Shown here one piece after another: positions 1 to 35,361 of a stretch of 35,361 bases of DNA; the first letter of the stretch is position 1, and each line of letters starts with the position of its first letter. The notes beneath the pieces are model-generated. The model saw nothing but the letters and a program-made list of their open reading frames with translations, did not search any database and was not told the origin of the DNA. Both the position numbers and the translations under genes were made by a program. Location: the NCBI GenBank assembly GCA_021158625.1, contig JAGGUG010000044.1:1-35361 (forward strand), read 5' to 3'. The DNA comes from Candidatus Omnitrophota bacterium (GTDB lineage Bacteria; Omnitrophota; 4484-213).

Positions 1-14
1 AAGTAATCCCTCTT

Positions 15-1562: not shown

Positions 1563-1708
1563 CCCTGTTAAATGCCGCTTCGTGGCAATTTCCCTCTGGC
1601 GGAATTATTTAACAGGGTGAACCCAAACAAAAAATAACAAAAAAATGCTTTTAAGTAGTTGTTTTTGGTCATTGGTTATTGTAATTTGGTGCTTGGTGCT
1701 TGGAATTT
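1525..1708. repeat. Two-armed short tandem repeat scar (AAATCAC/AAATTCC left arm, TTGGTGC/TTGG right arm) with a nested palindromic element
   Basis: aaatcacaaattccaaatcacaaacaaattccaat at 1525-1559 and ttggtcattggttattgtaatttggtgcttggtgcttggaattt ending at 1708. Confidence 0.8.
1563..1617. mobile_element. CCCTGTTAA...TTAACAGGG miniature inverted-repeat element (intergenic copy)
   Basis: Perfect 12-bp inverted repeat accctgttaaat / atttaacagggt; same termini as the four intragenic copies. Confidence 0.75.
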
Positions 1709-1741
1709 CTCAACTTTGACGAATGCCAAAGTTGAGTTAAG

Positions 1742-2329: not shown

Positions 2330-2358
2330 GCGAACATAAGTTTGCTGGCTAAATTTAC

Positions 2359-2411
2359 CCAGCACTAATTTTTCAAAGATGTCTTTAACCAAAGCAGAAA
2401 ATTAGTGCTGG
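2359..2411. repeat. CCAGCACTAATTTT...AAAATTAGTGCTGG inverted-repeat element, copy 1
   Basis: Perfect 14-bp IR; the same termini recur at 10517-10616 with a different interior. Confidence 0.8.
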
Positions 2412-2483
2412 ATTCAATTCCACCATACAATTTAGTCTCCTTGCAGTCGCCTAAATTGTGGTGTCATTGAAGGAGGAAGTATT

Positions 2484-3719: not shown

Positions 3720-5084
<1,365 letters not shown>

Positions 5085-17684: not shown

Positions 17685-18674
17685 ATGCAGAGAATAAATT
17701 TCGTAAAAGCAGTTGCTTCGGGGAATGATTTTATAATTATTGATGCTACTCGCTACCCGCTACCCGCTACCCGTCTTTATAAAAAACTTGCTAAAGAACT
17801 TTGTAAAAGGAAATTTGGAATTGGCGCAGATGGACTCTTATTAGTTGAGCCCTCTCAGAAGGCAGATTTCAGGATGCGCATTTTTAATCCTGACGGCAGC
17901 GAAGCCGAGATGTGCGGGAATGGAGCGCGCTGTGCGGCACTACACGCTACACGCAAAAGAACACAAGAAAAAAAAATAAAAATAGAGACGAAGGCAGGAA
18001 TTGTAGAGGCGGAAATTCAAACCCGCTACCCGCAAAATATAAAGATAAAAATGCCGCAACCTAAAAATTTTAAACTTGATATTCCTCTAAAAATTGACAA
18101 CAAAAGCATATCAGTGAGTTTTGTTAATCTCGGTGTCCCACACGCAGTCGTCTTTGTTAAAAATTTAGAAAAAGTTGATGTTCAGAATTTGGGCAGAAAG
18201 ATTCGCGAGCATCAAGAATTTCAGCCCGAGGGAACAAATGTTAATTTCGTCCAGGTATTGACTGGCGAGACTGTCCGCATCAGGACTTACGAGCGTGGCG
18301 TAGAGGAGGAGACGCTTTCTTGCGGCACGGGGAGCGTAGCCGCTGCGATTATCGCAGAGCGCAAAGCGCAGAGCACAAAGCGCAAACTACCCCGAACAGC
18401 CCCGAACAGCCCCGAAGGGCAAGCCTACGGGGCAGGCAAGACTACGGGACAGGCAGAGCACAAAATCAACCCCGTGGGAAATTTTGCTAAGAACTCTCTG
18501 AATTCCAAAGGTGTATCTCACATAGCAAAGGTGATTTCTAAGAGGGTCAATGTGCACACACAAGGAGAAATATTAAAGGTTTATCTCGATGAGCAATTGA
18601 AGGATGTGTATTTAGAAGGAGAGGCGAGGATTATTTATTTTGGCAGTATAGTTAACGCAACAAAACAAGTCTGA
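17685..18674 (+). CDS. dapF: Diaminopimelate epimerase with multiple in-frame repeat inserts
   Basis: GNDF, GIGADG, NPDGSEAEMCGNG, GVPH, GTNVNF and YERGVEEETLSCGTG motifs. Confidence 0.96.
   Translation: MQRINFVKAVASGNDFIIIDATRYPLPATRLYKKLAKELCKRKFGIGADGLLLVEPSQKADFRMRIFNPDGSEAEMCGNGARCAALHATRKRTQEKKIKIETKAGIVEAEIQTRYPQNIKIKMPQPKNFKLDIPLKIDNKSISVSFVNLGVPHAVVFVKNLEKVDVQNLGRKIREHQEFQPEGTNVNFVQVLTGETVRIRTYERGVEEETLSCGTGSVAAAIIAERKAQSTKRKLPRTAPNSPEGQAYGAGKTTGQAEHKINPVGNFAKNSLNSKGVSHIAKVISKRVNVHTQGEILKVYLDEQLKDVYLEGEARIIYFGSIVNATKQV
18470..18546. mobile_element. Degenerate in-frame CCCCGT...GGG element in dapF
   Basis: ccccgtgggaaat ... atttctaagaggg flanked by TCAA on both sides; encodes PVGNFAK...ISKRV. 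Confidence 0.7.
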
Positions 18675-20027: not shown

Positions 20028-20288
20028 ATGGAGTCGGAAGTGAAGAGGTTGATTTCTGCAAGAGAAATTCAGGTTAAATATCATATTTCTCTTTCTAGTG
20101 TAAACTATTACACTAATTTAGGACTCCTGCCTGTTGCGGGTAAGCGAGGGAATAAGCGATTATATGACCCAGACCTCATAAGAAAGAGAATGAAAGAAAT
20201 CCACAGACTTAAGCGCGAAGGTTTTCCTCTTCGGTTGATACAACGCCACTTTCTTTCTTCTTCCGAAGAGATTTTTCCAGTGGGTTGA
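20028..20288 (+). CDS. Small MerR-family HTH protein lacking an effector domain
   Basis: ISAREI...SSVNYYTNLGLLP...GNKRLY...GFPLRLI pattern; AAGGAG RBS. Confidence 0.85.
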   Translation: MESEVKRLISAREIQVKYHISLSSVNYYTNLGLLPVAGKRGNKRLYDPDLIRKRMKEIHRLKREGFPLRLIQRHFLSSSEEIFPVG

Positions 20289-20342
20289 ATTTTAAAGATA
20301 GTTATATAGTTTTGTGCAGTTTAGTAAGATGTGAGGGGAATA

Positions 20343-22912: not shown

Positions 22913-22991
22913 AAATAGAAGCGGAACAACACTAATCTAAAGGCGAATCAACGCTGAGGGCCTAAATCAGCGTTGAGAGGCACTTCTATTT
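22913..22991. repeat. Nested inverted repeat resembling the flanks of the GxxExxY gene, but empty
   Basis: aaatagaag/cttctattt outer IR and tcaacgctga/tcagcgttga inner IR; TAGAAGCGGA is identical to 33341-33350. Confidence 0.7.
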
Positions 22992-24844: not shown

Positions 24845-24925
24845 AGGGATGCTTAGGGAGGCTCTTATGTTTCCTTATAGTCCCTATGAATGCCATAACG
24901 AGAGTGACCCGCGAGGAGTAAGAAA

Positions 24926-27157
24926 ATGAAAAAGAACAAAATAATATATTTATTCTTTCTCGGTCTACTAATTTCTCTTTTAGGAGATTTAAGGTCAGTC
25001 TACGCGCTGGATGAGCAACCTACTCGCCTCGCTGAGTCGGCGCTTGTCTCGGGGCGCTCGCCTCTCGGCGAAGCCGAGGAAAATCAGGGGAAGCGGGTTA
25101 AACAATCCACAAGCGTAAGTGAGGCAATGGCGCATTACAATTTGGCTAAGAAGTATTTTTTATCCGGAGAGTATACAAAAGCCCGCCAGGAATTTGGCTT
25201 AGCCGCCCAATTAGATCAGAGTAAACGCAAGTCCGTTTATCGCCTTTCCCGGATGTATCTAAAGAAAATTGAGGAATTAGAAAAGAAGAGGAAACAGACA
25301 GAGGCGAGAAAGAGATGGGAAAAGATGAGGGCGGAGAAGTTAAGAAAGCAAGCCGAACTCAAAGCCAGGCGCGAAGCAGAAAGGAAAGCCAGACAGGAAG
25401 CCGCGCAGAGGGCTAAGGAAGCCACACAAAAGAGAAGAGCTGAAGTTAGAGCCAGGAAGGAAGAGCTCAAGAACTACTATACCAAAGGCAAAATCCATTA
25501 TCACAAAGGACAATATCAAGAGGCGATTGAGGAATTTAAGAAAGTTTTAAGTTTAGACCCAGAACATAAGGCAGGGAGATATATTGAGCTTTCCTTGAAG
25601 GCGATTGAAAAAAGAAAGCAGAGAAAACTTTTAGCTCAGAAGAAGGCAGAGCAACAAGCCAAGAGACAAGAGGAAGTGAGACCTCCCTCTCAAGAGCGGG
25701 AGGTTAAACCGGGCGAGAAAGAAAGTCTGAAGGAAGAAATAGAGCGACTTAAGCGTCAGATTGAAGAAGAAAATACTCGACTTAGGCTCGAGATAGAGAA
25801 ATTGAGAGAATCCCAGGAAAAGGCAAAGGAAAGGGAGTTGAGGCCAAAGGTTGAGGGGATGTTAGCGAAAAAGGAGGCCTTGGCTCTGGAAGAAGCAAAA
25901 TTAAAGGCATTCGTTGCGGGTCTTCAGAAGCTTGAAGCCAGACAGAGGAGACTTAAGCGGGAGGCCGAAGTTAGGATGAGTTTTAACAAAAAGGAGAGAC
26001 TCAAAGCAAGGGAAAGAAGAATAAGAGAAGAAGAGGCTAAGCTTAAGCTCAAACTCAAGGAAGAAAAGAACGCTCTCAGAGCCCGGCTTGAAGATGAATC
26101 AAAAAGAAAATTGAACTCTCTCCTTGAGGAAAAAGAAATTTTTTTCATTAATCAACTTGAAGAATACAAGCGAATACTCCAGGAGAAAGAAATTCCCTCT
26201 GTGGTTCAATTAAAAGAGAAAAAAAAGAAGATTTGTGCCCAATTGGCAAGTCTCCAGGAAGAGAAAAAGAGGCTTGAAGAGCTAAAACGCTCAAGGGCTG
26301 AACTAAGGAAAAAATTAGAAAGGAAATTCCAGCGACAGATTAAAGAGAAACTCACTCCCGGGCCCTCACTTCGGGTTGAAGTTAAAGAGGAGGATGAAGA
26401 ACTCAAAGCCAATTTGACAGCTGTTAATGAGAAGATAAAAAGGGTAGAGAAGATAAAGAAAGAGATAGAAGAGGAGTTACTGAATGAGGAGAAGAAACAG
26501 CAGAAGCAGAAGGAAAAGGCTCTGAAGGAAGAGAAAGCGCGAATTAAGCGAGAGTTTGAAAGGCAAAAGACTCGATTGGCTCTTGAGTTCCAAAAGGAGT
26601 TAAAGGCAAATTTTCAGACCCGGCTTAAGGCTCTGGAAGCAGACCGTAGGACCAAAATTGAGTCAATCTTAAAAGAGGAAGAAAAAAAAGAGAAGTTGGC
26701 TTCTGAATCAGAAAAGAAGTTACTTCAGGCGATTCTCAGAAAGTTAGGAGAGGTTAAACAACAAAGAGTTCAGGCCCAGGATAGACTTAAGGTCATTGAA
26801 ACTCTACGAAGAGAGCTTGAGGCACAGAGGAAAGCCGAACTCAAAGCCAGGCGCGAAGCAGAAAGGAAAGCCAGACAGGAAGCCGCGCAGAGGGCTAAGG
26901 AAGTAGAAGCCCCACCCATAGAACCCCCGGCCGGGGAATACTTAATAAGCGAGGGCGATACATTAGAGATCTTTGTTTACCTTCCTGACCTTCCAGAAGA
27001 AGTCAGCGTCAACTTGGATGGCGAGATTTCCTATCCTCTAATTGGCACGCTCCAGGCGAAAGGAAAAACCATAGACCAATTAAAGGAAGAAATCAGTGAG
27101 AGATTATCTCAATTTATAAATAATCCCTATGTCTCATTAACGATAAAAGGAAAATAG
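24926..27157 (+). CDS. Exported TPR, long coiled-coil and C-terminal Poly_export (Wza-like) domain protein
   Basis: Signal-like N-terminus; two TPR-like units; ~450 aa of E/K/R-rich helix; YLISEGDTLEIFV...V.LDGEISYPLIGTLQAKGKTIDQL...NPYV. Confidence 0.75.
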   Translation: MKKNKIIYLFFLGLLISLLGDLRSVYALDEQPTRLAESALVSGRSPLGEAEENQGKRVKQSTSVSEAMAHYNLAKKYFLSGEYTKARQEFGLAAQLDQSKRKSVYRLSRMYLKKIEELEKKRKQTEARKRWEKMRAEKLRKQAELKARREAERKARQEAAQRAKEATQKRRAEVRARKEELKNYYTKGKIHYHKGQYQEAIEEFKKVLSLDPEHKAGRYIELSLKAIEKRKQRKLLAQKKAEQQAKRQEEVRPPSQEREVKPGEKESLKEEIERLKRQIEEENTRLRLEIEKLRESQEKAKERELRPKVEGMLAKKEALALEEAKLKAFVAGLQKLEARQRRLKREAEVRMSFNKKERLKARERRIREEEAKLKLKLKEEKNALRARLEDESKRKLNSLLEEKEIFFINQLEEYKRILQEKEIPSVVQLKEKKKKICAQLASLQEEKKRLEELKRSRAELRKKLERKFQRQIKEKLTPGPSLRVEVKEEDEELKANLTAVNEKIKRVEKIKKEIEEELLNEEKKQQKQKEKALKEEKARIKREFERQKTRLALEFQKELKANFQTRLKALEADRRTKIESILKEEEKKEKLASESEKKLLQAILRKLGEVKQQRVQAQDRLKVIETLRRELEAQRKAELKARREAERKARQEAAQRAKEVEAPPIEPPAGEYLISEGDTLEIFVYLPDLPEEVSVNLDGEISYPLIGTLQAKGKTIDQLKEEISERLSQFINNPYVSLTIKGK
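25350..26903 (+). repeat. Exact 72-nt direct repeat (25350-25421 and 26832-26903)
   Basis: Both copies encode AELKARREAERKARQEAAQRAKE with identical DNA, 1482 nt apart. Confidence 0.92.
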
Positions 27158-27210
27158 CGTTATAGCGTAATAAAGTTATAGATTTCAACTCAATAACCCA
27201 ATAACAAAGA

Positions 27211-27262
27211 AAGACCCTTATTTACCCTTATATTCCCTTATTCACCCTTATTTAGCCTTATT
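27211..27262. repeat. CCCTTAT array with a 10-nt period
   Basis: aagaccctta tttaccctta tattccctta ttcaccctta tttagcctta, followed by antisense ataagggg. Confidence 0.9.
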
Positions 27263-27303
27263 AAAATAAGGGGAGACAATAACCCAATAACACAATAACG
27301 AGT

Positions 27304-28521
27304 ATGCCTACTTTCACTTACAAAGCCCGAGATAGCTTTGGTGAACTTATCAGTGGGGCTATAGAAGGTGACAATAAGAAAGCCGTAGCCAAGAGCCTTA
27401 ACAGATTGGGTTATAGTGTTATCCAGATAAGCTTGCAAAAATCACTCCAACCAATCCTCACAGATTTTATCAAGGGTTTTCGTCCCATAAGTAAACAAGA
27501 AATAACCGTCTTTACCAGACAATTGGCTACCCTTAGTCGTTCGGGGATGGCTATATCCCCGGCTCTTTCCATAGCGTGTGAGCAGACCACCAATCCTAAA
27601 TTTCGCCTTATCTTAGGGGATGTGGTTAATCATGTCCAGGGGGGTATGAGCCTCTCAGAAGCCCTCTCAAAATATCCTGAGGTTTTCTCGGATCTGTTTG
27701 TAAATATGGTCAAAGTGGGGGAGACAGGTGGGATTTTAGATAAGGTCCTGGATAGACTGGTTACCTTAAGCACTCAGGAACTCGAAAGGAACACGCGCAT
27801 AAGATCAGCATTAATCTATCCTATAGTTCTGGTAGCTGTTGCCTTCTTGGTAGTAAATTTTCTTCTAATAGGAGTTCTTCCGAAGTTTGTTGCTGTATTT
27901 AGGGCATCTCAGGCGAGATTACCGCTGCCCACCCAGCTTATTCTGAGTTTTAGTTGGATTTTGAGGCATCTGTGGTTACCTCTATTGATTGGTGTGGGGT
28001 GCCTCGCAGTTTGGTTTAAGAGGTACATAAAACAACCTGCAGGAAGATACAGGTTTGATTCGAAGGTTTTAAAACTACCCCTGTTTGGTAAACTTTATAC
28101 TAAAATAATGATATCCCGTTTTACAGGTGTCCTCTCAGCGCTCATCGCCTCAGGAGTTCCCCTGCTTCAAGCCCTGGGCGTTGTGGAGAAGACCATTACC
28201 AATATGGTCATCCGCCGCATAGTTCAGAATATACGCACCTCCATCACTGAAGGACAATCTCTGGCCGGAGCATTTAAGACCAGTGGTTTCTTCCCGCCTA
28301 TGGTTGTCCAGATGATATCGGTAGGAGAAAAGACGGGCAAGCTCGATGAAATGCTTCGGGATATTTCTTCTTTTTATGACCCGGAGATAGAATACACGAT
28401 TAGAAATCTAACTACCCTCTTAGAACCATTTATGTTGTTAGCAATGGGGGCTATGGTTGCCTTCATCGCTTTGTCGGTGTTATTACCGATATTCAACTTG
28501 ATTAAAGTGTTCCGGGGATGA
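27304..28521 (+). CDS. pilC: Type IV pilus / T2SS platform protein PilC/GspF
   Basis: MPTFTYKARD, FTRQLATL, GETGGILD, ALIYP and VGEKTGKLDEML...LLEP motifs. Confidence 0.95.
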   Translation: MPTFTYKARDSFGELISGAIEGDNKKAVAKSLNRLGYSVIQISLQKSLQPILTDFIKGFRPISKQEITVFTRQLATLSRSGMAISPALSIACEQTTNPKFRLILGDVVNHVQGGMSLSEALSKYPEVFSDLFVNMVKVGETGGILDKVLDRLVTLSTQELERNTRIRSALIYPIVLVAVAFLVVNFLLIGVLPKFVAVFRASQARLPLPTQLILSFSWILRHLWLPLLIGVGCLAVWFKRYIKQPAGRYRFDSKVLKLPLFGKLYTKIMISRFTGVLSALIASGVPLLQALGVVEKTITNMVIRRIVQNIRTSITEGQSLAGAFKTSGFFPPMVVQMISVGEKTGKLDEMLRDISSFYDPEIEYTIRNLTTLLEPFMLLAMGAMVAFIALSVLLPIFNLIKVFRG

Positions 28522-28525
28522 GTAT

Positions 28526-28801
28526 AACCCTTATTTTCCGGGGATGAGTATGACCCCTATTTACCCTTATAGTCCCTTATTCTTTATTGAGGAAAACCCT
28601 TATTTAATAGAAGTCCCTTATTAAGAGAAAACCCTTATTTACCCTTATTTAATAAGAATCCCTTATTAAGAGAAAACCCTTATTTACCCTTATAGTCCCT
28701 TATTGAGGGAAGACCCTTATTTACCCTTATTTAATAGAAGTCCCTTAATTCGTCCTTATTGAAAATGAAAGAAAGACTTTATTCGCCCTTATTCACCCTT
28801 A
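28526..28801. repeat. CCCTTATT array
   Basis: About 20 imperfect units with mixed 10-nt and 15-17-nt spacing. Confidence 0.95.
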
Positions 28802-28808
28802 CGCCACT

Positions 28809-29264
28809 ATGAACGCAATAATGAAGAAAGGTTTTACTTTACTCGAGCTTCTAATCGTAATAAGTATAATCGCTATCCTCGCAGCTACGATGATTCCCAA
28901 CTTTATCGGCTTCGATGCAGAAGCAAAACTTGCTGCTACTCAAAGCAACCTTAATACCCTCCGCACTCGCATTGTTCTCTTTAGAACTAAAGAGGGACAT
29001 TATCCCGAAACTCTGGAAGAACTATTAGAGACCACCTATAGCGATATGGGAATAGAACGGCCATATCTGGATAGTATACCTGTGGAGTTCATCTCTTCAA
29101 AGCAGGGAAATGCTGATGTTGAGAACCAGACTTCCGAGGACCCCCTACCCGGAGACGGCGGCTGGGTCTATTTTGTAGACAAAGCAAAAGTAGTTATAGA
29201 CTGGGATATGCCCCTCGATTCAAAATGGGGAAAGTACGAGGGGGAGGTGCCATCGGAATGGTAG
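28809..29264 (+). CDS. Prepilin, GspG/PilA-like major (pseudo)pilin
   Basis: KKG|FTLLELLIVISIIAILAATMIP with Glu5; GHYP..LEEL. Confidence 0.9.
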   Translation: MNAIMKKGFTLLELLIVISIIAILAATMIPNFIGFDAEAKLAATQSNLNTLRTRIVLFRTKEGHYPETLEELLETTYSDMGIERPYLDSIPVEFISSKQGNADVENQTSEDPLPGDGGWVYFVDKAKVVIDWDMPLDSKWGKYEGEVPSEW

Positions 29265-29283
29265 TTCGTTATTGTTATAAACG

Positions 29284-29326
29284 AAGAACCCTTATTTACC
29301 CTTATTTTCCCTTATCTTCCCTTATT
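29284..29326. repeat. CCCTTAT array with a 10-nt period
   Basis: Four units followed by antisense ctaagggg. Confidence 0.9.
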
Positions 29327-29355
29327 AAAACTAAGGGGAGACAATAAATGACGCA

Positions 29356-29712
29356 ATGAACACAATAACAAACAAGGGGGTTGTGCTGTTAAGCGTTGTA
29401 ATTATTCTGCTGACCATAACCTTAATCGGTGGAAGCCTTGCCGCCTTTTTATCATCGGTTAATATCTCAACGTGCAATATAGCCGACCAAACAAAGGCGC
29501 TATACCTGGCTGAAGCAGGCATTGCTCATGCGATTCATAATCTCCGCACCGAGGCAGGAGAGGGTGGCATCCTGGATAAGACGATTGGACCCATTACTCT
29601 TGGAGAAGGAACCTATCAGGTTTCAGTGGATTTTGCCCAATCGCTGATAACCTCAACCGGGGAGGTGCGCGGAACAAGGCGAACACTCCAGTTTCAGTAT
29701 AAACCCCTATAG
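29356..29712 (+). CDS. PilX/GspK-like minor pilin
   Basis: KG|VVLLSVV without Glu5; KALYLAEAGI and ITSTG motifs typical of PilX N-terminal domains. Confidence 0.8.
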   Translation: MNTITNKGVVLLSVVIILLTITLIGGSLAAFLSSVNISTCNIADQTKALYLAEAGIAHAIHNLRTEAGEGGILDKTIGPITLGEGTYQVSVDFAQSLITSTGEVRGTRRTLQFQYKPL

Positions 29713-29737
29713 CGTTATAGGGTATAGTGTTATAGAC

Positions 29738-29955
29738 GAAGACCTTTATTTTCCCTTATTTACCCTTATTTAATAGAAGTCCCTTATTAAGAGAAAACCC
29801 TTATTTAATAAGAATCCCTTATTGAGGAAAACCCTTATTTACCCTTATAGTCCCTTATTGAGGAAAACCCTTATTTACCCTTATTTGATAGAAGTCCCTT
29901 AATTCGTCCTTATTGAAAATGAAAGAAAGACTTTATTCGCCCTTATTCACCCTTA
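29738..29955. repeat. CCCTTATT array
   Basis: About 15 units; the 3' 88 nt (29888-29975) are identical to 28734-28821. Confidence 0.95.
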
Positions 29956-29962
29956 CGCCACT

Positions 29963-30379
29963 ATGAACGCAATAACAAATAAAGGTTTTACCTACATCGA
30001 GCTTCTAATAACCCTGGTGATAATGGCGGTTTTGTTTGTCCCGATGATGCAAGTATTTTCCCATTTCCTCCATTCCACCGTGGTATCCCAGGATTTCATA
30101 ACCGCAACAAATTTAGCCAGATGGGAGATGGAGCGGGTCAAAAATCTGAATATGACCAAAGCCCAACTTAGAGAAGCGGGCGATAGCATATATCCGTCGG
30201 GTGAACCGCTTGAGATGAATAATGCAAAGTGGCGGATAAGCAGAAAGGTATTCAAAGAGACTGATCCTCTGGAGGTTCGTGTTTCTGTCTTCCATGACGG
30301 TGAACCCGACAGGCCCCTCGTGACCCTGGTGACGCTAATTGAGGATACGATTTGGGAGGAAATTCGCCCATTGGAATAA
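29963..30379 (+). CDS. PilV/GspI-like minor pilin
   Basis: KG|FTYIELLITLVIMAVL; ATNLARWEME. Confidence 0.85.
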   Translation: MNAITNKGFTYIELLITLVIMAVLFVPMMQVFSHFLHSTVVSQDFITATNLARWEMERVKNLNMTKAQLREAGDSIYPSGEPLEMNNAKWRISRKVFKETDPLEVRVSVFHDGEPDRPLVTLVTLIEDTIWEEIRPLE

Positions 30380-30384
30380 AGATG

Positions 30385-30516
30385 TTCCCTTATTCACCCT
30401 TATCAAGGAAGATCCTTATTTTCCCTTATCAAGGAAACTCCCTTATCAAAGGAAGTCCCTTATCAAAGGAAGCCCCTTATTTTCCCTTATCAAGGGACCC
30501 TTATTCACCCTTATCA
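30385..30516. repeat. CCCTTATC(AA) array
   Basis: About 10 units of the TC subtype. Confidence 0.95.
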
Positions 30517-30531
30517 AACCAAGAGGCAGAA

Positions 30532-31746
30532 ATGGTCTATCAACCCAAAGACCCCTTAGGTTTTACCCTAATTGAGCTACTGATTGCTATCGCCATATCG
30601 GTAGTAATTAGCGCGGCGATATACTTCAGTCTGAGTAGTGCCCTGGAGAGCTGGGGATATTCCCGGGACCATCTTGCTCTTCAGAAGGTTATTTCAGAGG
30701 TTATGGACGAAGTTGCGGACGGGACCTTCAGAGCATATGGACTAAAAGACAGTTTAGAAATACTATCAGCGAGCGGGACAAAGATAGAGTTTGTCCCCCC
30801 CTGGACCGACGATACCCATATGTTTATCTCTGGTGACCTAATTTATACCTTGAACCGTCGACCCAAGCCCGGGTCGGCAGTGCCAGTTGGAGAGGTTAAA
30901 TTCCCCGGCTCAGATGAGTATCGAACCATACCCGTAACTCTTGTTGAAACAGAATTTATAAAAGAACCTCAGGTTAAGATTGGCTTGGTGCCGCCTGAAG
31001 GGAGCCAACTTCGCTTTACCTACCATCCTGACCCCAAAACAAACCCCGATACAATAAAGACTATCTGGTGGGACCCGGAGGAGCAACAACTCTATTCAGA
31101 GGATATAGATGGGATAGAGAATATCTCTAGGAACCCTCTTGGAGTAAAGCTCACCGATTTTCGCCTGCGATACTACGATAACGCAAATAACCCGGTAGGC
31201 GACCAGGGCGGGCTCGACCAGAATACTCTGCTGACGGTCACCGGAATCGAGGTATGGATGAAGGCTGAACTTGGCCAATATTCACAAGAATTAGTGAGTT
31301 TCGTAAACCTGCGCAATTCACCAATGCGTAAAGGTTTCCTGACTTTAAGAGAAGGCACTAAATTTCCCATTCCTGACAGCCACAACATCCACACCCTTTT
31401 ATTGACCAACTTTTCGGGTGTAGGGAATCTGGACGAACTTCAGCTTGAAGCCACTCCATCCACAGGAAAGAGCTGGGGGGTAACTATAAAGTTTTCAAAA
31501 ACGGGTTCAGCTAAAGCCATAATAGAGACTCTTATTATAGAATATCCACCTGGCCATTCCATCTATACTGAACACCCTCGCTCAAGCGTTGAGCTGGGAT
31601 TGGATCTGCTTACCCTGGGTGCCAATGGCCTCTATGACTACGATGACGACCCGGACATCGAGGACTTTGTCCTGCTGAAGGATGAGGTGGTATTAGAGGT
31701 GAAGAGGATGGATATCGAAGGTGCCGGGCTTTTCGTTAGACCATGA
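30532..31746 (+). CDS. PilW/GspJ-like minor pilin with a leader copied from the four-helix-bundle gene
   Basis: MVYQPKDPLG|FTLIELLIAIAISVVI; GAGG RBS before ATG 30532. Confidence 0.85.
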   Translation: MVYQPKDPLGFTLIELLIAIAISVVISAAIYFSLSSALESWGYSRDHLALQKVISEVMDEVADGTFRAYGLKDSLEILSASGTKIEFVPPWTDDTHMFISGDLIYTLNRRPKPGSAVPVGEVKFPGSDEYRTIPVTLVETEFIKEPQVKIGLVPPEGSQLRFTYHPDPKTNPDTIKTIWWDPEEQQLYSEDIDGIENISRNPLGVKLTDFRLRYYDNANNPVGDQGGLDQNTLLTVTGIEVWMKAELGQYSQELVSFVNLRNSPMRKGFLTLREGTKFPIPDSHNIHTLLLTNFSGVGNLDELQLEATPSTGKSWGVTIKFSKTGSAKAIIETLIIEYPPGHSIYTEHPRSSVELGLDLLTLGANGLYDYDDDPDIEDFVLLKDEVVLEVKRMDIEGAGLFVRP

Positions 31747-32041
31747 AAAGACCCTTATTGAAGGAAGACCCTTATCAAAGGAAGTCTCTTATCAAGGGAA
31801 GCCCCTTATTTCCCCTTATCTCCCTTATTCACCCTTATCAAGGAAACTCCCTTATCAAGGGAAGACCCTTATCAAGGAAAAACCCTTATCTTCCCTTATT
31901 TTCCCTTATTCACCCTTATCCAAGAAAGTCCCTTATCAAAGGAAGACCCTTATCTTCCCTTATTTTCCCTTATCAAGAGACCCTTATCAAAGGAGGACCC
32001 TTATTTTCCCTTATCAAGAGACCCTTATTCACCCTTATCAA
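31747..32041. repeat. CCCTTATC(AA) array
   Basis: About 22 units; the longest array, directly 5' of the four-helix-bundle gene. Confidence 0.95.
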
Positions 32042-32055
32042 ACCAAGAGGCAGAA

Positions 32056-32610
32056 ATGGTCTATCAACCCAAAGACCCCTTAGGTTATAAGAAGCTCCTG
32101 ACCTGGAAACAGGCCGGCGAGATTTATCACAAGACAAAAGATTTTACCAAGAAATACCTCAATAGAACAACAGATAGAAGATTAATTGCTCATATGGATG
32201 ATTCCGCCCGGTCAGTTCAACGTAATATAGAAGAGGGTTATAAAAGGGCAACGACAAAGGAGTATGTTGAATTTCTTGGTTTCTCCCGCGCCTCTTTGGA
32301 AGAATTGAAGGGGGATGTTGAGGAGTTGAAAAGGGAATGGAAAGAAGGGGTAAGATGGGTCGATAAAGGGAAAATAGAGGAGTTGTTGGACCTTATTTAT
32401 GGCGAAGATTGTATGATGGGCAGGCAGATTGCATCTCTGGAGAGGAAGATGGTAGAGGAGAAGACTCTGCCGCAGAAAGAGATGATAATGAGAAGTTGGA
32501 AATTGGATAAATTGAGAGAGAAAAAGTTCTGGAGGTCTATTAAAGATAAATTTGGGCTTGAGAAGGATGAAAAAGGGAGGATAAGAAAGAATGATGATGA
32601 GAAAGAATAA
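32056..32610 (+). CDS. Four-helix-bundle protein (23S rRNA-IVP / TIGR02436-like family)
   Basis: GYKKLLTWKQA...HMDDSARSVQRNIEEGY.R...EYVEFLGFSRASLEEL pattern. Confidence 0.88.
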   Translation: MVYQPKDPLGYKKLLTWKQAGEIYHKTKDFTKKYLNRTTDRRLIAHMDDSARSVQRNIEEGYKRATTKEYVEFLGFSRASLEELKGDVEELKREWKEGVRWVDKGKIEELLDLIYGEDCMMGRQIASLERKMVEEKTLPQKEMIMRSWKLDKLREKKFWRSIKDKFGLEKDEKGRIRKNDDEKE

Positions 32611-32618
32611 GGAACAGA

Positions 32619-32820
32619 TTTCCCCTTATTTACCCTTATTAAGGAAACTCCCTTATCAAAGGAAGTCTCTTATCAAGGGAAGACCCTTATCAAGGAAAAA
32701 ACCCTTATCTTCCCTTATTTTCCCTTATTCACCCTTATCAAAGGAAGTCCCTTATCAAGGGAAGCCCCTTATTTTCCCTTATCTTCCCTTATCAAGAGAC
32801 CCTTATTCACCCTTATCAAA
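32619..32820. repeat. CCCTTATC(AA) array
   Basis: About 15 units directly 3' of the four-helix-bundle gene. Confidence 0.95.
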
Positions 32821-32833
32821 CCAAGAGGCAGAA

Positions 32834-33343
32834 ATGGTCTATCAACCCAAAAACGCAATAACTCCCGCCTGCCGGACGGGCAGGCAAAAACGCAATAACC
32901 CAATAACAAATAAGTGGCTATCAGTATTATTATTAGTGGTCTTCAGTGTCCTTTTCGCTACGGTTGCCTGTGCTGACGAAAAGGTATGGAGTGCTGGCGG
33001 AGATGAAACGACCTGGAGCGACGACGACAACTGGTTTCCGGCCGTTGAACCCAACAGTGAAGACGATGTCACCATAGATATGGAGGATGCCTCTGTTACT
33101 TGCACCGAGACCTTTAAAGCAAAGTCTATCGTTGTGGGTGGCAGAACGAGTTCGACCCTTACCAGCAACAACTTTGTCTACGGAACAGTAACGCCCGATT
33201 CGGCATCTGATGTGGCATTAGACAATAAAAAGGGCGGCACGATTATCCTGAAGGGTGCTGGAACGCTCACCCTGGGAGGTCAATATAGGAGTTCAGAAGA
33301 ATCTCTCATCTCCGAGCCGAGCTTTATGTTCTGGGTAAAGTAG
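32834..33343 (+). CDS. Small secreted acidic beta-rich protein (WS..NW motif, G8/adhesin-like) with a mosaic repeat-derived N-terminus
   Basis: Hydrophobic signal ending ACA|DEK; WSAGG...WSDDDNW.P..EP...DDVTI; GAGG RBS before ATG 32834. Confidence 0.7.
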   Translation: MVYQPKNAITPACRTGRQKRNNPITNKWLSVLLLVVFSVLFATVACADEKVWSAGGDETTWSDDDNWFPAVEPNSEDDVTIDMEDASVTCTETFKAKSIVVGGRTSSTLTSNNFVYGTVTPDSASDVALDNKKGGTIILKGAGTLTLGGQYRSSEESLISEPSFMFWVK

Positions 33344-33820
33344 AAGCGGATCTCCGCGGATAGCGACGCAGAAAGACGCGGATAGAATAATGGGAAAGTT
33401 ACTATATGAAAAGGAGTCGTACGAGATACGCGGCGCGTGTTTTGCAGTTTGGAAAGAATTCGGCAGTGCTTTTAAAGAGACAGTAATTGAAAAAGCCTTG
33501 GCAAAAGAGTTTAAGGAGAGAGGATTGTCTATAGATCGCCAGAAACGGATAGATATATTCTATAGGGATGAAAAAGTGGGCGTTTATATTCCAGATTTTG
33601 TAATAGATAATAAAATTATTATAGAGATTAAGGTTAAACCTGTATTGATTCAAGAAGACAGGCGACAGTTTTGGCATTACCTTAAAGGTTCTCATTATCG
33701 TCTTGGGTTTTTGGTCAATTTCGGTACGAAGAAACTTGAGATTGTTAGGAGGGTATATGATTCTGCGCGCACAAGATATCAGCGTATATCCGCGTAGATA
33801 TCCGCGTCTATCTGCTTCTA
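33341..33820. mobile_element. Inverted-repeat-bounded cassette carrying the GxxExxY gene
   Basis: tagaagcgga versus tctgcttcta (9/10 complementary); agacgcggata versus tatccgcgtct (11/11); tandem (ACGCGGA)/(TCCGCGT) units. Confidence 0.6.
33390..33797 (+). CDS. GxxExxY family protein (PD-(D/E)xK nuclease-like fold)
   Basis: LLYEKESYEIRGACFAVWKEFGSAFKETVIEKAL, PDFVIDNKIIIEIK, QFWHYLK and GFLVNFG; the signature is the variant GSAFKETVI. Confidence 0.9.
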   Translation: MGKLLYEKESYEIRGACFAVWKEFGSAFKETVIEKALAKEFKERGLSIDRQKRIDIFYRDEKVGVYIPDFVIDNKIIIEIKVKPVLIQEDRRQFWHYLKGSHYRLGFLVNFGTKKLEIVRRVYDSARTRYQRISA

Positions 33821-33848
33821 AATAACCCAATAACAGGAGGTAAAAGCG

Positions 33849-35361
33849 ATGAAAAAGAAAATTTGGATGTTGGTGTTAATAGCAATGGTCATCTTACTTG
33901 GCGTCCACTATCTTTACGCCGGCCAGCTCCTCTTTGACGGTGTTCCCGTGGACATCACCACGACCGACAATGAGGACCTGGTCATTGTCCCCGGCAGTGG
34001 TGGTAATACTCAAATAGGCGATGCCACCGGCGCAAATACCCACGCCACCTCAAACGACGATTTGCATGTGACAGGCGTTTTAGAAACCGACGGTGTCCTT
34101 TATTCTGACTCAGGCATAATTTCAGGTTCCACCATCCGCTCGGACACCGACTCAACAGATTCGCTCGGTTCAAGCTCAACTGCCTGGTTGAACCTCTATG
34201 TAGATTCAGTCAAGACTGTATCCGGCACGAACCTTATTCTTCTCCCAACCTCGGCATATACCATAATCGGCGATGCTGGCTCAGCAGGCCATGTCTCAGC
34301 CAACGACGACCTCTTTGTATCAGGCGCTTTGGAGGTTGACGGCACAATCTACGCAGACGGCGCGATTACCGCTGGGTCAAATATCATTTCCGATACCGAC
34401 TCAACCGACTCGCTCGGTTCCTCTAATATCGCCTGGTTGTACCTCTATGTAGATACTATCTCCACAACATCAGGGACAGACCTTTCGTTATCTCCAGCAT
34501 CAGGAAGCGGCGTGGATGGCTCGGTAACCCGTTCTGCCGCAACAGGTAACGAAATTGCCTACGACCTCGCCGCCACTGTAGAGAAAGCCTCGGGAGACTT
34601 TACCGGCCTCAGACTCAATGTCACAGATACCGCCTCACCCGGGCTGCTTAAACTGCAAGACCTGCAAGTCGGGGGGACTTCCATATTGCAGGTTTATGAA
34701 GACACAAACTCTGCCAACTATGGCCGTCTATCAGTCGGCTCTGCCCCCTGGGATGGCGAAGCATCAGGACACTTTGTTGGCTCCTCAGACGGCACCCAGA
34801 TTGCCGTAAATGCACCGGATACCTTTACCGGAAATCTTATTGACTTACAAGTCGCCGGTGTTTCCAAATACAAAGTTAGTTATGAGGGTATAGTTACCCA
34901 GGTTGGCTCCCAGACCGTTACTGGAAATATCGTTCCCTCGGCAGATTCAGAGTATAACCTCGGCTCAACCTCGGCTGCCTGGTTGAATCTTTATGCCGAC
35001 AATATCAAGACAGTGAGCGGCACGAACCTTATTCTTCTCCCAACCTCGGCATATACCATAATCGGCGATGCCGGCTCAGCAGGCCATGTCTCAGCCAACG
35101 ACGACCTCTTTGTCTCCGGAGCCGCAGAAGTCGACGGCACCCTCTACGCCGATGGCGGAATAACCGCCACCACTGTAAATGCCACCACCTTTGATACCAA
35201 TGTTGCTGCTGCCGGCCTCACTCTCTCCGGGACGACCCTTGCTGCTGACGGCACCGATACCGACATCAACATCGCGATTACCCCCCAGGGCGCAGGCGAG
35301 GTGGATATCAGCAAGGTCGATATCGATGGCGGGACTATTGACGCGACAACCATCGGGGCGA
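33849..35361 (+). CDS. Large exported S/T/D/G-rich repeat protein (adhesin/fibre-like), truncated by the window end; absent from the ORF track
   Basis: AGGAGG RBS; MKKKIWMLVLIAMVILLGVHYLYA signal; open to the window end; repeats SDTDSTDSLGSS..AWL.LY.D and IGDA....NDDL.V.G..EVDG. Confidence 0.88.
   Translation, partial: MKKKIWMLVLIAMVILLGVHYLYAGQLLFDGVPVDITTTDNEDLVIVPGSGGNTQIGDATGANTHATSNDDLHVTGVLETDGVLYSDSGIISGSTIRSDTDSTDSLGSSSTAWLNLYVDSVKTVSGTNLILLPTSAYTIIGDAGSAGHVSANDDLFVSGALEVDGTIYADGAITAGSNIISDTDSTDSLGSSNIAWLYLYVDTISTTSGTDLSLSPASGSGVDGSVTRSAATGNEIAYDLAATVEKASGDFTGLRLNVTDTASPGLLKLQDLQVGGTSILQVYEDTNSANYGRLSVGSAPWDGEASGHFVGSSDGTQIAVNAPDTFTGNLIDLQVAGVSKYKVSYEGIVTQVGSQTVTGNIVPSADSEYNLGSTSAAWLNLYADNIKTVSGTNLILLPTSAYTIIGDAGSAGHVSANDDLFVSGAAEVDGTLYADGGITATTVNATTFDTNVAAAGLTLSGTTLAADGTDTDINIAITPQGAGEVDISKVDIDGGTIDATTIGA
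34223..35113 (+). repeat. 96-nt near-exact direct repeat (34223-34318 and 35018-35113)
   Basis: One synonymous mismatch (gct/gcc); 795 nt apart and in frame. Confidence 0.9.

Follow-up and report, generated by a model that had tools for sequence, protein, structure and literature searches.

CCCTTAT arrays at the gene junctions of an Omnitrophota type IV pilus operon as possible arms of small selfish cassettes

Background

In Coxiella, an S23p ORF lies within an intervening sequence (IVS), in the loop of a 28-bp terminal-inverted-repeat stem that RNase III cleaves; upstream of the ORF are tandem GACAGAT heptamers whose number varies between strains (PMC4990558). Heptamers have been reported as the commonest class of long simple sequence repeats (SSRs), with polymerase slippage as their origin (Mrazek 2007, in the summary given by PMC4679880). 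The same paper describes direct repeats of the heptamer TAACTGA just upstream of start codons, for which binding of a translational regulator was proposed (PMC4679880). The S23p family itself, PF05635, is homologous to Avd according to PMC10053308, which agrees with the relationship to Avd that an earlier, sequence-only reading of the present locus had stated for its four-helix-bundle (4HB) family.

We have analyzed a stretch of 35,361 nt from Candidatus Omnitrophota bacterium (GCA_021158625.1, contig JAGGUG010000044.1), referred to here as the window, in which short CCCTTAT arrays occupy junctions of a type IV pilus operon that also harbours a 4HB gene.

Results and discussion

Census of the arrays

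The window contains 85 copies of the heptamer CCCTTAT, as against 8.16 +/- 2.76 in 100 dinucleotide shuffles; the largest count among the shuffles was 16 and none attained 85. On the + strand of the seven stop-to-start junctions J1 to J7 (Table 1) lie 77 of these copies, accompanied by 12 units with one mismatch. The seven arrays of one orientation that had been described from the sequence are thus real and far above shuffle expectation, and all seven are intergenic, as claimed, by the ORF map and family matches. Mapping of the motif over the whole genome (1.18 Mb) gave 332 matches and seven clusters of three or more, every one of which is a J1-J7 array. The arrays are confined to one type IV pilus operon (27.2-32.8 kb).

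Units are spaced by 10 nt (34 cases), 17 nt (17), 18 nt (5), 14 nt (4) or 16 nt (2), close to the 10 and 15-17 nt given before. The architecture is irregular, with a 7-nt core and spacers of 3 or 10 nt, and is no simple tandem repeat; the core is far better conserved than the spacers, the 34 ten-nt units showing 7 different spacer triplets. The two subtypes noted earlier can be distinguished by the eighth base, which is T or A in 32 of the 33 units of J1-J4 and C in 27 of the 44 units of J5-J7. The longest array and the last one do flank the 4HB gene. Each array ends 20-40 nt upstream of a start codon. Contigs from sequencing runs X1-X3, which may be the window's own source, agree with it at every position of J1, of J3 and of almost the whole of J5 (0 differences); they break inside the four long arrays (J2, J4, J6 and J7), so that the exact lengths of these are provisional. 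Upstream, the letters of the reported "eroded trace" were confirmed at 24870-24888; its two degenerate units, too few for statistics, may be what remains of a CCCTTAT-type copy that had both arms and has since decayed.

Table 1. Features of the operon and its junctions (positions in the window)
Feature	Position	Strand	Evidence or description
Decayed gene-less miniature of GCGGAT-type (GxxExxY) element, pilO-secretin junction	22916..22984	+	Left terminus TAGAAGCGGA; internal AACGCTGA / ATCAGCGTT; right end ..CACTTCTA
Secretin / coiled-coil junction, earlier "eroded trace" (CTCTTAT, CCTTAT, CCCTAT)	24845..24925	+	Purine tract AGGGATGCTTAGGGAGG precedes; read directly
J1: four 10-nt CCCTTAT units (4 exact), CCTTATT-AAA-ATAAGGGG hairpin/SD, then pilC start	27158..27303	+	Direct reading
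pilC/gspF platform protein	27304..28521	+	PF00482 5.8e-61; TIGR02120 2e-114
J2: long composite array, 14 exact units	28522..28808	+	Starts with 26-nt tandem duplication of pilC 3' end
Major pilin / pseudopilin	28809..29264	+	N_methyl PF07963, TIGR02532, PilA/GspG-like matches
J3: four 10-nt units (4 exact) and SD-pairing hairpin	29265..29355	+	Unit census, RNA fold
p118, pilin-like 118-aa protein	29356..29712	+	No family match
J4: long composite array, 11 exact units	29713..29962	+	Unit census, repeat D6
GspI-like minor pilin	29963..30379	+	PF02501, PF07963
J5: CCCTTATC-subtype array, 9 exact units	30380..30531	+	Unit census
GspJ-like minor pilin, 404 aa	30532..31746	+	PF07963
J6: longest array, 21 exact units, upstream flank of 4HB gene	31747..32055	+	Unit census
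4HB gene (S23p / 23S_rRNA_IVP)	32056..32610	+	PF05635 47.7 bits (cut-off 33.8); TIGR02436 42.4 bits; PDB 2gsc E 3.8e-4
J7: 14 exact units, downstream flank of 4HB gene	32611..32833	+	Unit census
p169, secreted, no known family, conserved downstream partner of gspJ	32834..33343	+	Orthologues
Complete GCGGAT-type element	33341..33820	+	Left terminus TAGAAGCGGA, (CGCGGATAG)n arm, GxxExxY gene, (ATATCCGCGT)n arm, right terminus TCTGCTTCTA
GxxExxY PD-(D/E)XK nuclease gene	33390-33797	+	PF13366 6.3e-31; TIGR04256 1.4e-30

The GxxExxY element and its turnover

Downstream of p169 lies a GxxExxY nuclease gene that the earlier reading had not listed. The arms of the element that carries it form a duplex with z = -6.4 (0 of 200 shuffles as good). 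Its termini, TAGAAGCNGA...TCNGCTTCTA, are shared by 7 of 8 loci (L285-L292, the window's own locus and seven others at 63% identity or more), and copies with 73-80% identity are found in four other families. Among 28 evaluable GxxExxY genes, 24 have a 6-mer at least three times in a flank, 21 have inverted repeats shared between the flanks, and in 21 the flank duplex is better than all 60 shuffles.

Gene-less miniatures of this element fill the orthologous operon of a relative, genome G252: every junction mapped there (before pilC, pilC to pilin, after the pilin, and the next one) holds either such a miniature, of 74-152 nt, or a full GxxExxY element, and the 3.4 kb mapped contain no 4HB gene. 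Exchange of one kind of end for another is indicated by run X5, from another study, which represents a strain diverged by a few per cent. In X5, single contigs run from the pilin gene to p118, and from p118 to gspI, by way of about 43 nt similar to window positions 33778-33821; these joints were accepted at 90% likeness, and their sides are 30-43 nt long, a length range for which the tool gives a warning. J3 and J4 thus appear to have been replaced, at strain level, by ends of the GxxExxY element. J5 is 9 nt shorter in X5.

The 4HB gene and duplicated blocks

Orthologues of gspJ with 50-66% identity were found in at least 11 loci among the matches listed. At five of six orthologous loci p169 follows gspJ directly, with no 4HB gene between them; the gaps are 14 nt, 15 nt, two overlaps and one of 213 nt that contains a degraded GxxExxY remnant. 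None of the six loci has an ORF matching the window's 4HB protein (BLASTP E <= 1e-4), and CCCTTAT arrays are absent from all six operons. By this comparison of loci, the 4HB gene is a later insertion between gspJ and p169. The first 11 codons of the gene duplicate the gspJ prepilin leader, and the PF05635 match begins at residue 12. We also considered a DGR-type Avd as the identity of the protein; this is ruled out by its PF05635/TIGR02436 matches and the lack of a bAvd (PF22296) match at E <= 0.01.

Gene starts and array ends have been copied together within the operon. A block made up of the last 101 nt of J2 and the first 47 nt of the pilin gene is found again at J4/gspI with 94% identity (repeat D6). 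The end of the J5 array, the RBS and the first 34 nt of gspJ recur before the 4HB gene with 96% identity, and before p169 with 72% (repeat D5); the starts of p169 and gspJ have 18 nt in common. A 110-nt block is common to J6 and J7 (repeat D4, 95% identity).

Flanking arrays across the phylum

The sequence-only reading had suggested checking 4HB subfamilies for flanking k-mers of their own, and such k-mers do occur, gene by gene: across Omnitrophota, 23 of 28 4HB genes have a 6-mer at least three times in a flank, compared with 2 of 15 neighbouring genes at the same loci. Both flanks are repetitive in 10 of 28 (0 of 15 in the control), and a repeated 6-mer is shared in inverted orientation by the upstream and downstream flanks in 15 of 28 (0 of 15; in the window's own genome, 13 of 895 genes). 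The flank duplex was better than all 200 shuffles in 15 of 29 4HB cases. Eleven more 4HB matches, from genomes of the same genus and family, mostly have arrays with motifs of their own, as judged by eye. Throughout the phylum, arrays specific to each cassette, inverted upstream versus downstream, bracket the 4HB and GxxExxY genes, and these flanks have pairing potential.

One 4HB cassette, in genome G369, has a right arm that aligns in phase with J1 and J3, their common form being four or five 10-nt CCCTTAY units, CCTTATT, a loop, AAGGG(G)AG and the next ATG, although such short periodic units are easily forced into alignment. An arm of this type also occurs in G132. A genome of the window's genus (G002) has an empty inverted pair, (AAGGGTTAGT)x4.4, 13 nt and (CCCTTACTAA)x4.5, adjoining a pilC paralogue.

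A cassette interpretation

The interpretation to which we give an even chance is that the CCCTTAT arrays are arms of selfish, junction-colonising cassettes, mostly gene-less, that have been altered by slippage and recombination. Small cassettes of this kind would colonise the stop-to-start junctions of Omnitrophota operons, here those of the type IV pilus operon. A full cassette would consist of one small gene, either S23p / PF05635 4HB or GxxExxY PD-(D/E)XK nuclease, bracketed by cassette-specific units of 7-10 nt, purine-rich upstream and complementary downstream, so that the flanks can pair in a long stem. On this view a cassette inserted between gspJ and p169 with the window's 4HB gene as its cargo, and a copied gspJ 5' region would afterwards have replaced the upstream arm and the first 11 codons. 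Slippage would lengthen or shorten the arrays, and recombination or gene conversion would carry them, along with the 5' ends of genes, from one junction to another; strains would also exchange them for ends of the other type of cassette. Since SD-like AAGGGGAG stands at the right end of an array, just before the next start codon, the downstream gene need not be silenced. The arrays of J1-J5 would descend from 4HB-cassette arms. The mechanism of cassette mobility, any processing of the arms by RNase III, which this genome encodes, and any effect of the arrays on pilin expression are likewise conjectural.

Several observations count against cassettes. The arrays around the window's 4HB gene are direct, rather than inverted; J6 and J7 nevertheless form a flank duplex of -43.1 kcal/mol (-17.9 in shuffles; z = -5.25, 0 of 200) because the long units, CCCTT-ATC-AAGGG, are quasi-palindromic. 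In J1-J5 CCCTTAT has one polarity, with at most one inverted unit, and no defined termini comparable to those of the GxxExxY element were found there. The closest 4HB homologue found has only 40% identity, which leaves us without a sister cassette bearing CCCTTAT arms, and the CCCTTAC-type arms of G369 and G132 have no further gene-less copies within 13 kb. Within the window's own genome, 8 of 10 cassettes have at least three copies in a flank, but intergenic spacers are array-rich in general (a 6-mer at least three times in 207 of 541, compared with 96 in shuffles), so the cassettes are not clearly enriched over other intergenic DNA.

Alternative explanations

The arrays might instead be SSRs born of slippage, a local extreme of a genome-wide heptamer habit unlinked to the 4HB and GxxExxY cassettes, an explanation that we consider unlikely. 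It fits the reported prevalence of heptamers among SSRs (PMC4679880) and a sharp excess of TRF arrays at periods of 7, 14 and 21 nt (77, 79 and 32 arrays at score >= 46, with 3 at period 8, 2 at period 9 and none at 6 or below), about half of which fall inside long ORFs, the lysA-like and dapF-like genes of the window among them. A 6-mer occurs at least four times in 89 of 541 intergenic spacers (22 in shuffles), and an inverted partner lies within 700 nt of just 12 of the 202 short arrays in this genome; most are thus plain one-polarity repeats that need no cassette. Duplicating pilin paralogues could have taken upstream arrays along, but the arrays adjoin non-paralogous genes too (pilC, 4HB and p169). 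Moreover, a single motif with irregular units, unlike a simple tandem repeat, occupies seven junctions and no other array of the genome, in a form that matches the G369 right arm, and slippage cannot swap an array for the end of an unrelated element, as at J3 and J4 of X5.

We assign a similarly low probability to the proposal that the arrays control expression of the pilin operon in cis, as 5'-UTR or intercistronic RNA elements kept by selection, among which the cassettes merely landed. They might serve as a platform for an RNA-binding protein, or as anti-SD/SD hairpins with ribosome standby sites. The TAACTGA heptamers (PMC4679880) are the closest published analogue, and the conservation of the core over the spacers, the distance of 20-40 nt to start codons and the joint copying of array ends and start codons (D5, D6) point the same way. 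The RNA fold of J3, in which the last CCCUUAU unit pairs with SD-like AAGGGGAG, is better than all 200 shuffles (z = -3.43), but J1, J5 and J6 fold no better than shuffles (z = -1.2, -1.1 and -0.3). An Rfam search gave no family at E <= 1 save one chance match (0.68), and neither promoter-like sites (17, compared with 14.0 +/- 4.1) nor terminator-like sites (19, compared with 12.6 +/- 3.4) are in excess. The lack of arrays at J3 and J4 in X5 and of CCCTTAT arrays in the six orthologous operons indicates that they are not needed to express these genes.

Deposition of CCCTTAT next to surface-structure genes by an Avd-like 4HB protein with an RT or nuclease in trans, as first proposed, draws on the homology of PF05635 to Avd (PMC10053308), the association of 4HB genes with their own k-mers and the presence of one RT in the genome and an adjoining PD-(D/E)XK nuclease, but is very improbable: the sole RT (the only PF00078 match, on contig C56 and, as had been noted, outside the window) is part of a complete DGR that has a separate bAvd (PF22296, 56.3 bits), VR and TR and no CCCTTAT cluster nearby, the window's protein has no bAvd match at E <= 0.01, its gene was inserted and has borrowed its start, G252 has the same junction-filling layout with GxxExxY and, in the 3.4 kb mapped, no 4HB gene, flanking arrays across the phylum are inverted like element ends and not one-directional, and the CCCTTAT-type 10-nt arrays of 213 public loci do not adjoin 4HB genes, which were found in 2 of those loci. 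The original interpretation is supported in part: the association of 4HB genes with short-unit arrays, each with its own k-mer, stands, and templated writing is not supported. The arrays behave as ends of mobile cassettes would, and not as written tracts would.

Comparison with known systems

With their pairable flanks around a small gene, the Omnitrophota cassettes resemble the S23p-bearing intervening sequences that RNase III excises from 23S rRNA.

Structure and distribution of the CCCTTAT arrays

The right half of the window is a plus-strand operon of type IV pilus / type II secretion-like genes, and seven of its stop-to-start junctions between 27.2 and 32.8 kb (J1 to J7) hold arrays of CCCTTAT units. 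The arrays described in the sequence-only reading are real: the plus strand of J1 to J7 carries 77 exact units and 12 with one mismatch, and CCCTTAT occurs 85 times in the window against an expectation of 8.2 +/- 2.8. The genome-wide map proposed there was made, and J1 to J7 are the only clusters of this motif in the whole assembly (1.18 Mb, 128 contigs). The division of the arrays into two subtypes, with the boundary at J4/J5, was also correct. The arrays do not consist of a fixed unit repeated head to tail; the 7-nt core is spaced by 10, 14, 16, 17 and 18 nt in irregular order, mostly by 10 nt (34 times) and 17 nt (17 times), and the long units are quasi-palindromic with the form CCCTTAT-C/T-N-AAGGRAR. 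No defined ends were found for the CCCTTAT arrays. Contigs from three sequencing runs of one study reproduce J1, J3 and most of J5 with zero differences, so that the arrays are not an artefact of one assembly. The same contigs break within J2, J4, J6 and J7, and the lengths of these four long arrays are provisional.

Features of the pilus operon in the window, and of the diversity-generating retroelement (DGR, 1-3887) on contig C56 of the same genome
Sequence	Feature	Position	Strand	Remarks
Window	pilM-N	start 20331	+
Window	pilO	start 22051	+
Window	secretin	start 23009	+
Window	coiled-coil/TPR/Poly_export protein	start 24926	+
Window	pilC	start 27304	+
Window	major pilin	start 28809	+
Window	p118, pilin-like protein	start 29356	+	118 aa
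Window	GspI-like pilin	start 29963	+
Window	GspJ-like pilin	start 30532	+	404 aa
Window	four-helix-bundle gene (4HB)	start 32056	+
Window	p169, secreted protein	start 32834	+	169 aa
Window	GxxExxY PD-(D/E)XK nuclease gene	start 33390	+
Window	large repeat protein	start 33849	+
C56 (L234)	DGR target gene	2-1282		C-terminal variable region ~1140-1282
C56	truncated GxxExxY fragment in the DGR locus	1402-1626
C56	bAvd of the DGR	1840-2184		PF22296, 56.3 bits (cut-off 40)
C56	template repeat of the DGR	~2465-2600		differs from the 3' variable region of the target at adenines
C56	reverse transcriptase of the DGR	2616-3887	opposite	IGNLTSQ motif

A repeat search of window positions 27100-33000 returned array families and nothing else, with no template or variable repeat among them. 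Some of the repeated blocks extend into genes. A 112-nt block (D5), composed of an array end, the ribosome binding site and the first 34 coding nt of the GspJ-like gene, recurs ahead of the 4HB gene with 96% identity and ahead of p169 with 72%. A 110-nt block (D4) is common to J6 and J7 (95% identity) and a 148-nt block (D6) to the starts of the pilin and GspI-like genes (94%).

Several smaller features of the operon were recorded. A small ORF directly upstream of pilM (20029-20290) resembles an HTH regulator by eye. A 26-nt tandem duplication at 28510-28551 takes in the 3' end of pilC with its stop codon as well as the first array unit, and TTCCGGGGATGAGTAT is present twice. GTTAT-rich tracts lie just after stop codons at 27158-27185, 29265-29285 and 29713-29740, and four copies of AATAACCCAATAAC (about 27192, 27278, 32894 and 33821) lie shortly upstream of start codons; together they frame junctions as a second motif pair and may be the remains of another element with inverted arms. 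The 5' coding part of p169 contains a GC-rich hairpin of 23 nt (32863-32885) with a direct copy of AAAAACGCAATAAC on each side (32849-32899), an arrangement suggestive of a very small insertion that duplicated its target.

The four-helix-bundle gene and its relatives

The 4HB gene (32056-32610) has J6 as its upstream and J7 as its downstream flank. Its product matches PF05635 (S23p; 47.7 bits, cut-off 33.8) and TIGR02436 (42.4 bits, cut-off 24), both covering residues 12-87 alone, and PDB entry 2gsc (XCC0516) over residues 12-115 with an E-value of 3.8e-4; the four-helix-bundle fold and pentameric ring of the family are predicted for it from these sequence matches. Residues 1-11 repeat the prepilin leader of the GspJ-like protein. 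The closest relative found is 40% identical and there was no near homologue. The gene is seated between the protein-coding genes gspJ and p169 and not in a helix of 23S rRNA; an Rfam search of 26900-34000 found no rRNA. For comparison, six orthologous operons were taken from other families in the phylum (GspJ-like proteins 53-66% identical). In five of these six, p169 follows directly after the GspJ-like gene (gaps of 14, 15 and 213 nt, and two overlaps), and no ORF in any of the six matches the 4HB protein. The 4HB gene of the window is a passenger. PilC orthologues within the genus are just 34-38% identical, so that there is no close orthologous locus to compare there.

The two flanks of the window 4HB gene pair with an energy of -43.1 kcal/mol, compared to -17.9 for shuffled sequences (0/200 as good; z = -5.25), because the long CCCTTAT units are quasi-palindromic. 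A link between 4HB genes and gene-specific flanking k-mers had been put forward for testing in the sequence-only reading, and it holds across the phylum: a 6-mer present at least three times is found in one flank of 23 of 28 4HB genes and in both flanks of 10, while 15 have repeated 6-mers common to the two flanks in inverted orientation. The corresponding counts for 15 other genes of the same loci were 2, 0 and 0, and in the window's own genome inverted shared repeats occur at 13 of 895 genes. Flank pairing was better than all 200 shuffles for 15 of 29 cassettes. The upstream arms are purine-rich (for example, repeats of AAGGGTTACT) and the downstream arms are their complement; the arm motif differs copy by copy, including eleven further matches from the same genus or family that were inspected by eye. 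Several phylum copies of the gene are interrupted by stops. Several cassettes lie in pilus operons, as in genome G388, where one is placed between the end of a pilB-like gene and the start of pilC. Next to a pilC paralogue in a same-genus genome, AAGGGTTAGT and CCCTTACTAA arrays form an inverted pair with no gene between them. CCCTTAC-type downstream arms are present in two 4HB cassettes (G369 and G132), and the arm in G369 aligns in phase with both J1 and J3. The order is four or five 10-nt units, then CCTTATT, then a loop and AAGGG(G)AG, followed by the next start codon.

A second cassette family carrying a GxxExxY nuclease

The window also contains, at 33341-33820, a GCGGAT-type element, a cassette that bears the GxxExxY gene (PF13366). 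Its arms are built from the (ACGCGGAT)n unit, with (CGCGGATAG)n upstream and (ATATCCGCGT)n downstream of the gene, and its outer termini are TAGAAGCGGA and TCTGCTTCTA. The flanks form a duplex of -61 kcal/mol, compared to -32 for shuffles (0/200 as good). A survey of 400 genomes of the phylum gave 28 evaluable GxxExxY loci. A 6-mer present at least three times was found in a flank at 24 of them, repeated 6-mers common to both flanks in inverted orientation at 21, and a flank duplex better than all 60 shuffles likewise at 21. Copies 73-80% identical are present in four other families, and the GCGGAT-type termini are kept in seven of eight loci (the window's own and seven others at 63% identity or more). 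Inspection of element flanks by eye gave one possible 5-nt target-site duplication, in G336, and no consistent duplication. Two GxxExxY matches in G336 (contig C1, 54249-54635 and 60942-61328) lie 6.7 kb apart with equal scores and query identity, which suggests a recent duplication or transposition.

Related pilus operons contain these elements in several junctions. In G279 one GxxExxY copy immediately precedes the GspJ-like gene, and the gap from this gene to p169 holds a degraded one. In the orthologous operon of G252 a gene-less miniature precedes pilC; pilC is followed by a full element that a second miniature adjoins, and a third and a fourth miniature lie after the pilin gene and in the next junction. 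One full element and four miniatures thus occupy 3.4 kb. The window has the one full element and a decayed GCGGAT-type miniature in the gap between pilO and the secretin gene. G252 gives the picture drawn in the sequence-only reading, with arrays at every junction around one small gene, built here by a nuclease-bearing element.

Turnover of junctions between strains

A sequencing run from a second study, X5, represents a strain that is a few per cent diverged. Single X5 contigs lead from the pilin gene to p118, and from p118 to the GspI-like gene. In place of J3 and J4 they carry ~43 nt that look like the right arm plus terminus of the GxxExxY element (window 33778-33821). The calls were made at 90% likeness, and their sides of 30-43 nt fall in a range flagged as risky; we accepted them since each contig joins two adjacent genes of this operon. 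J5 is kept in X5 but is 9 nt shorter, and J2 is kept but rearranged. Past the gspJ stop there is a 13-letter loose end, whose last 9 letters resemble window 33339-33347, and the X5 contigs neither cover 31814-32983 nor bridge it; this does not count as evidence that the strain lacks the 4HB gene.

Short repeats in the genome, in relatives and in public data

Short tandem repeats are abundant in this genome. Tandem Repeats Finder (TRF, score of at least 46) gave 77, 79 and 32 arrays with periods of 7, 14 and 21 nt, compared to 3 and 2 for periods 8 and 9; about half of the period-7/14/21 arrays lie within long ORFs. A 6-mer repeated at least four times is found in 89 of 541 intergenic spacers, against 22 after shuffling, and of 202 arrays just 12 are accompanied by an inverted partner at a distance of up to 700 nt. 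That the CCCTTAT arrays are plain slippage repeats of this kind we consider improbable, given their irregular spacing; slippage-type repeats are common here and need no cassette, and this explanation therefore stays alive. Beside the 10 cassette genes of the genome, the enrichment of arrays is not significant (8 of 10 have a 6-mer at least three times in a flank), since intergenic DNA is array-rich anyway and the shared-6-mer measure has a background of 44% of genes, which makes it uninformative within this genome.

The copy number of period-7 arrays peaks at 4.x in coding and intergenic sequence alike. In-frame heptamers are seen in window genes, with CTCAACC repeated 3.6 times in a lysA-like ORF (17387-17416) and GCTACCC four times in a dapF-like ORF (17745-17773). 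Some array families recur across the genome with fixed layouts (for example on contigs C29, C64, C83 and C102, and on C30, C67, C101 and C113); an ATTCGTA(A) family has at least 10 loci and a TGCCTAC/GCAGTAG family at least 12, the latter in a few cases as inverted pairs.

A pattern of three CCCTTAT units was found in one of 60 relatives (G027) and in neither of two same-genus genomes. In G027, another Omnitrophota genome, a long perfect hairpin has three AATAAGGG(G) units at its side (contig C97, ~28434-28460), and a toxin-antitoxin-like gene pair is adjacent. Public scans for the CCCTTAT-N3 pattern returned 93 genome stretches and at least 120 metagenome stretches, against ~0.3 expected by chance with uniform bases. 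Most arrays inspected are regular 10-nt tandem repeats, chiefly the CCCTYATMAA type of Saprospiraceae and often in inverted pairs, and none of the inspected stretches is an orthologue of the window locus. In Saprospiraceae MAGs, 10-nt repeats of CCCTTATCAA, CCCTTATAAA and CCCTCATCAA are very common, and intergenic inverted pairs take the form (GGGTTGATAA)n, a short loop and (TTATCAACCC)n. With five queries from the window's genome, phmmer found 4HB matches beside two of 213 public loci, both to one 4HB query, and no GxxExxY match. Among 150 of the 223 small ORFs within 500 nt of public arrays, Pfam searches gave 17 families with two or more members; PF05635 and PF13366 were not among them, with one member each at most.

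Regulatory, coding and retroelement readings

The arrays could also be cis-regulatory modules of the operon, an explanation that we regard as unlikely. J3 folds well (z = -3.4), its last unit pairing with a Shine-Dalgarno-like tract, and is alone in this; the RNA fold of the long arrays is unremarkable (z = -0.3 to -1.2; J6, -0.3). No excess of promoter or terminator sites was detected, and the sole Rfam match in 26900-34000 (snoR125, E 0.68) is at chance level. A G-quadruplex or i-motif on the G-rich strand is rejected as weak, with absolute G4Hunter-like means of 0.22-0.54 across J1 to J7, where the usual threshold is ~1.2. ORFs cross the arrays, yet a coding role is rejected because units 10 or 17 nt long shift the reading frame.

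The mechanism favoured in the sequence-only reading, in which an Avd-like protein and a reverse transcriptase acting in trans write the repeats, is now very improbable: the only reverse transcriptase of the genome lies within a complete DGR on C56 with its own bAvd, and the genome-wide scan shows no CCCTTAT cluster around it. Nor is the window 4HB protein a DGR Avd, as it has no match to the bAvd profile PF22296 at E <= 0.01 and no adjacent reverse transcriptase, template repeat or variable region.

Interpretation

The best-supported account, which we hold with moderate confidence, is that the CCCTTAT arrays are arm sequences of the 4HB/GxxExxY class of cassettes. On this account the arms would have multiplied within the operon without a gene or as arms alone. 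Slippage would have reshaped them, as would recombination in which the 5' ends of genes are copied too, and between strains they would have been exchanged for the ends of the GxxExxY element. The object as a whole would then be an IVS-like or REPIN-like selfish cassette that occupies operon junctions and carries 4HB or GxxExxY. The step from 4HB-cassette arms to the one-polarity arrays of J1 to J5 is our inference. Our confidence is held at this level because J1 to J5 have no left arm and no defined ends, and because the best relative of the 4HB protein is 40% identical.

More tentatively, 4HB and GxxExxY genes may define an unrecognised class of junction-hopping elements, 'intervening sequences of operons', organised like REPIN-RAYT systems. 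Each cassette protein would recognise its own repeat-built arms and mobilise gene-less copies in trans, with the GxxExxY nuclease as a putative homing or transposition enzyme. Paired arms might let RNase III (gene on C119, 104.9 bits) excise the element from polycistronic RNA, and insertion would therefore be non-polar. At a given stop-to-start site, competing families would supplant one another within the divergence of a species. If so, the 23S rRNA IVS and the DGR Avd would be special cases or recruits of a wider class.

The '23S rRNA-intervening sequence protein / four helix bundle protein' and 'GxxExxY protein' (PDDEXK_3) families are very large and annotated everywhere, with function unknown. 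The locus and its relatives place both in one concrete, testable context, as cargo of small cassettes with pairable repeat-built arms that lie between cistrons, have gene-less copies and turn over between strains. This context would tie the S23p ORFs and heptamer repeats of rRNA IVS to ordinary operons. It proposes an origin for some of the short intergenic repeats that several phyla carry without explanation, and a source of Avd. It is also a warning for annotation: where junctions in operons for surface structures are filled with repeats, these can be debris of mobile elements and not regulatory sequence. No prior statement of the link between 4HB/GxxExxY cassettes and repeats was found in the literature searched, which did not cover supplements and subscription journals.

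Comparison with known systems

The four-helix-bundle fold family of Avd is described as related to PF05635 (PMC10053308), the family of the window 4HB protein; the window gene differs in having no reverse transcriptase, template repeat or variable region beside it, and the bAvd of this genome sits on C56. PDDEXK_3 is listed as 'Unknown', with multiple transfers (PMC3424549).

For heptamers just upstream of start codons the closest analogue is the TAACTGA direct repeats reported from Beggiatoaceae, Cyanobacteria and Bacteroidetes, which have short spacers, form arrays of up to 43 copies, lie mostly a few nt upstream of start codons, and are patchily spread with function unknown (PMC4679880). 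There, one motif occupies 169 sites genome-wide, whereas CCCTTAT is confined to one operon. A further difference, also from long simple-sequence repeats, is that hundreds of other motifs, pure heptamer arrays among them, occur elsewhere in the window's genome. The link to cassette genes found here has no counterpart in the abstract and introduction of that report.

The closest published system is the S23p IVS of 23S rRNA in Coxiella burnetii and Leptospira. The Coxiella IVS is described as an S23p ORF in the loop of a 28-bp terminal-inverted-repeat stem that is cut by RNase III, with a strain-variable number of tandem heptamers just upstream of the ORF; the ORF of IVS is often decaying and IVS are regarded as selfish (PMC4990558). 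The cassettes share the cargo family (S23p, PF05635) and an ORF between pairable inverted flanks (15 of 28 phylum 4HB genes), with stem-forming flanks at the window 4HB gene and in 15 of 29 phylum cassettes, and the decay of the IVS ORF has its parallel in the several 4HB copies broken by stops. They differ in lying in mRNA operon junctions instead of helix 9, 25 or 45 of 23S rRNA, in having arms made up of arrays with 7-10-nt units where IVS have a single unique inverted repeat, and in having gene-less or arm-only copies in neighbouring junctions and a second cargo, GxxExxY, of the same design. Excision by RNase III is reported for IVS; this genome encodes RNase III too, and excision of the cassettes is putative.

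The pairing of gene-bearing with gene-less copies has its closest analogue in REPIN-RAYT systems. REP/REPIN sequences are described as short, palindromic and intergenic, with many non-autonomous copies and a rare protein-coding copy flanked by the same repeats, each RAYT gene being matched to its own repeat population (PMC3337134, PMC3116915). A REP-like hairpin motif, TTCCAAACCCGCATTGGAA, lies on either side of the one Y1_Tnp transposase gene of the window's genome (C47, 9376-9648, minus strand; IS200/RAYT-like), the two flanks being in inverted orientation. Neither CCCTTAT nor any other recurrent heptamer occurs within 2 kb of this gene, and it is unconnected with the heptamer arrays. In the cassettes the part of the Y1 transposase of REPIN-RAYT would fall to a PD-(D/E)XK nuclease or to a 4HB protein, the arms are tandem arrays, and mobilisation in trans is putative. 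The likeness in gene-less copies holds for the GCGGAT-type element, of which G252 combines one GxxExxY gene with four gene-less miniatures that have common termini, and the window one full copy with one decayed miniature.
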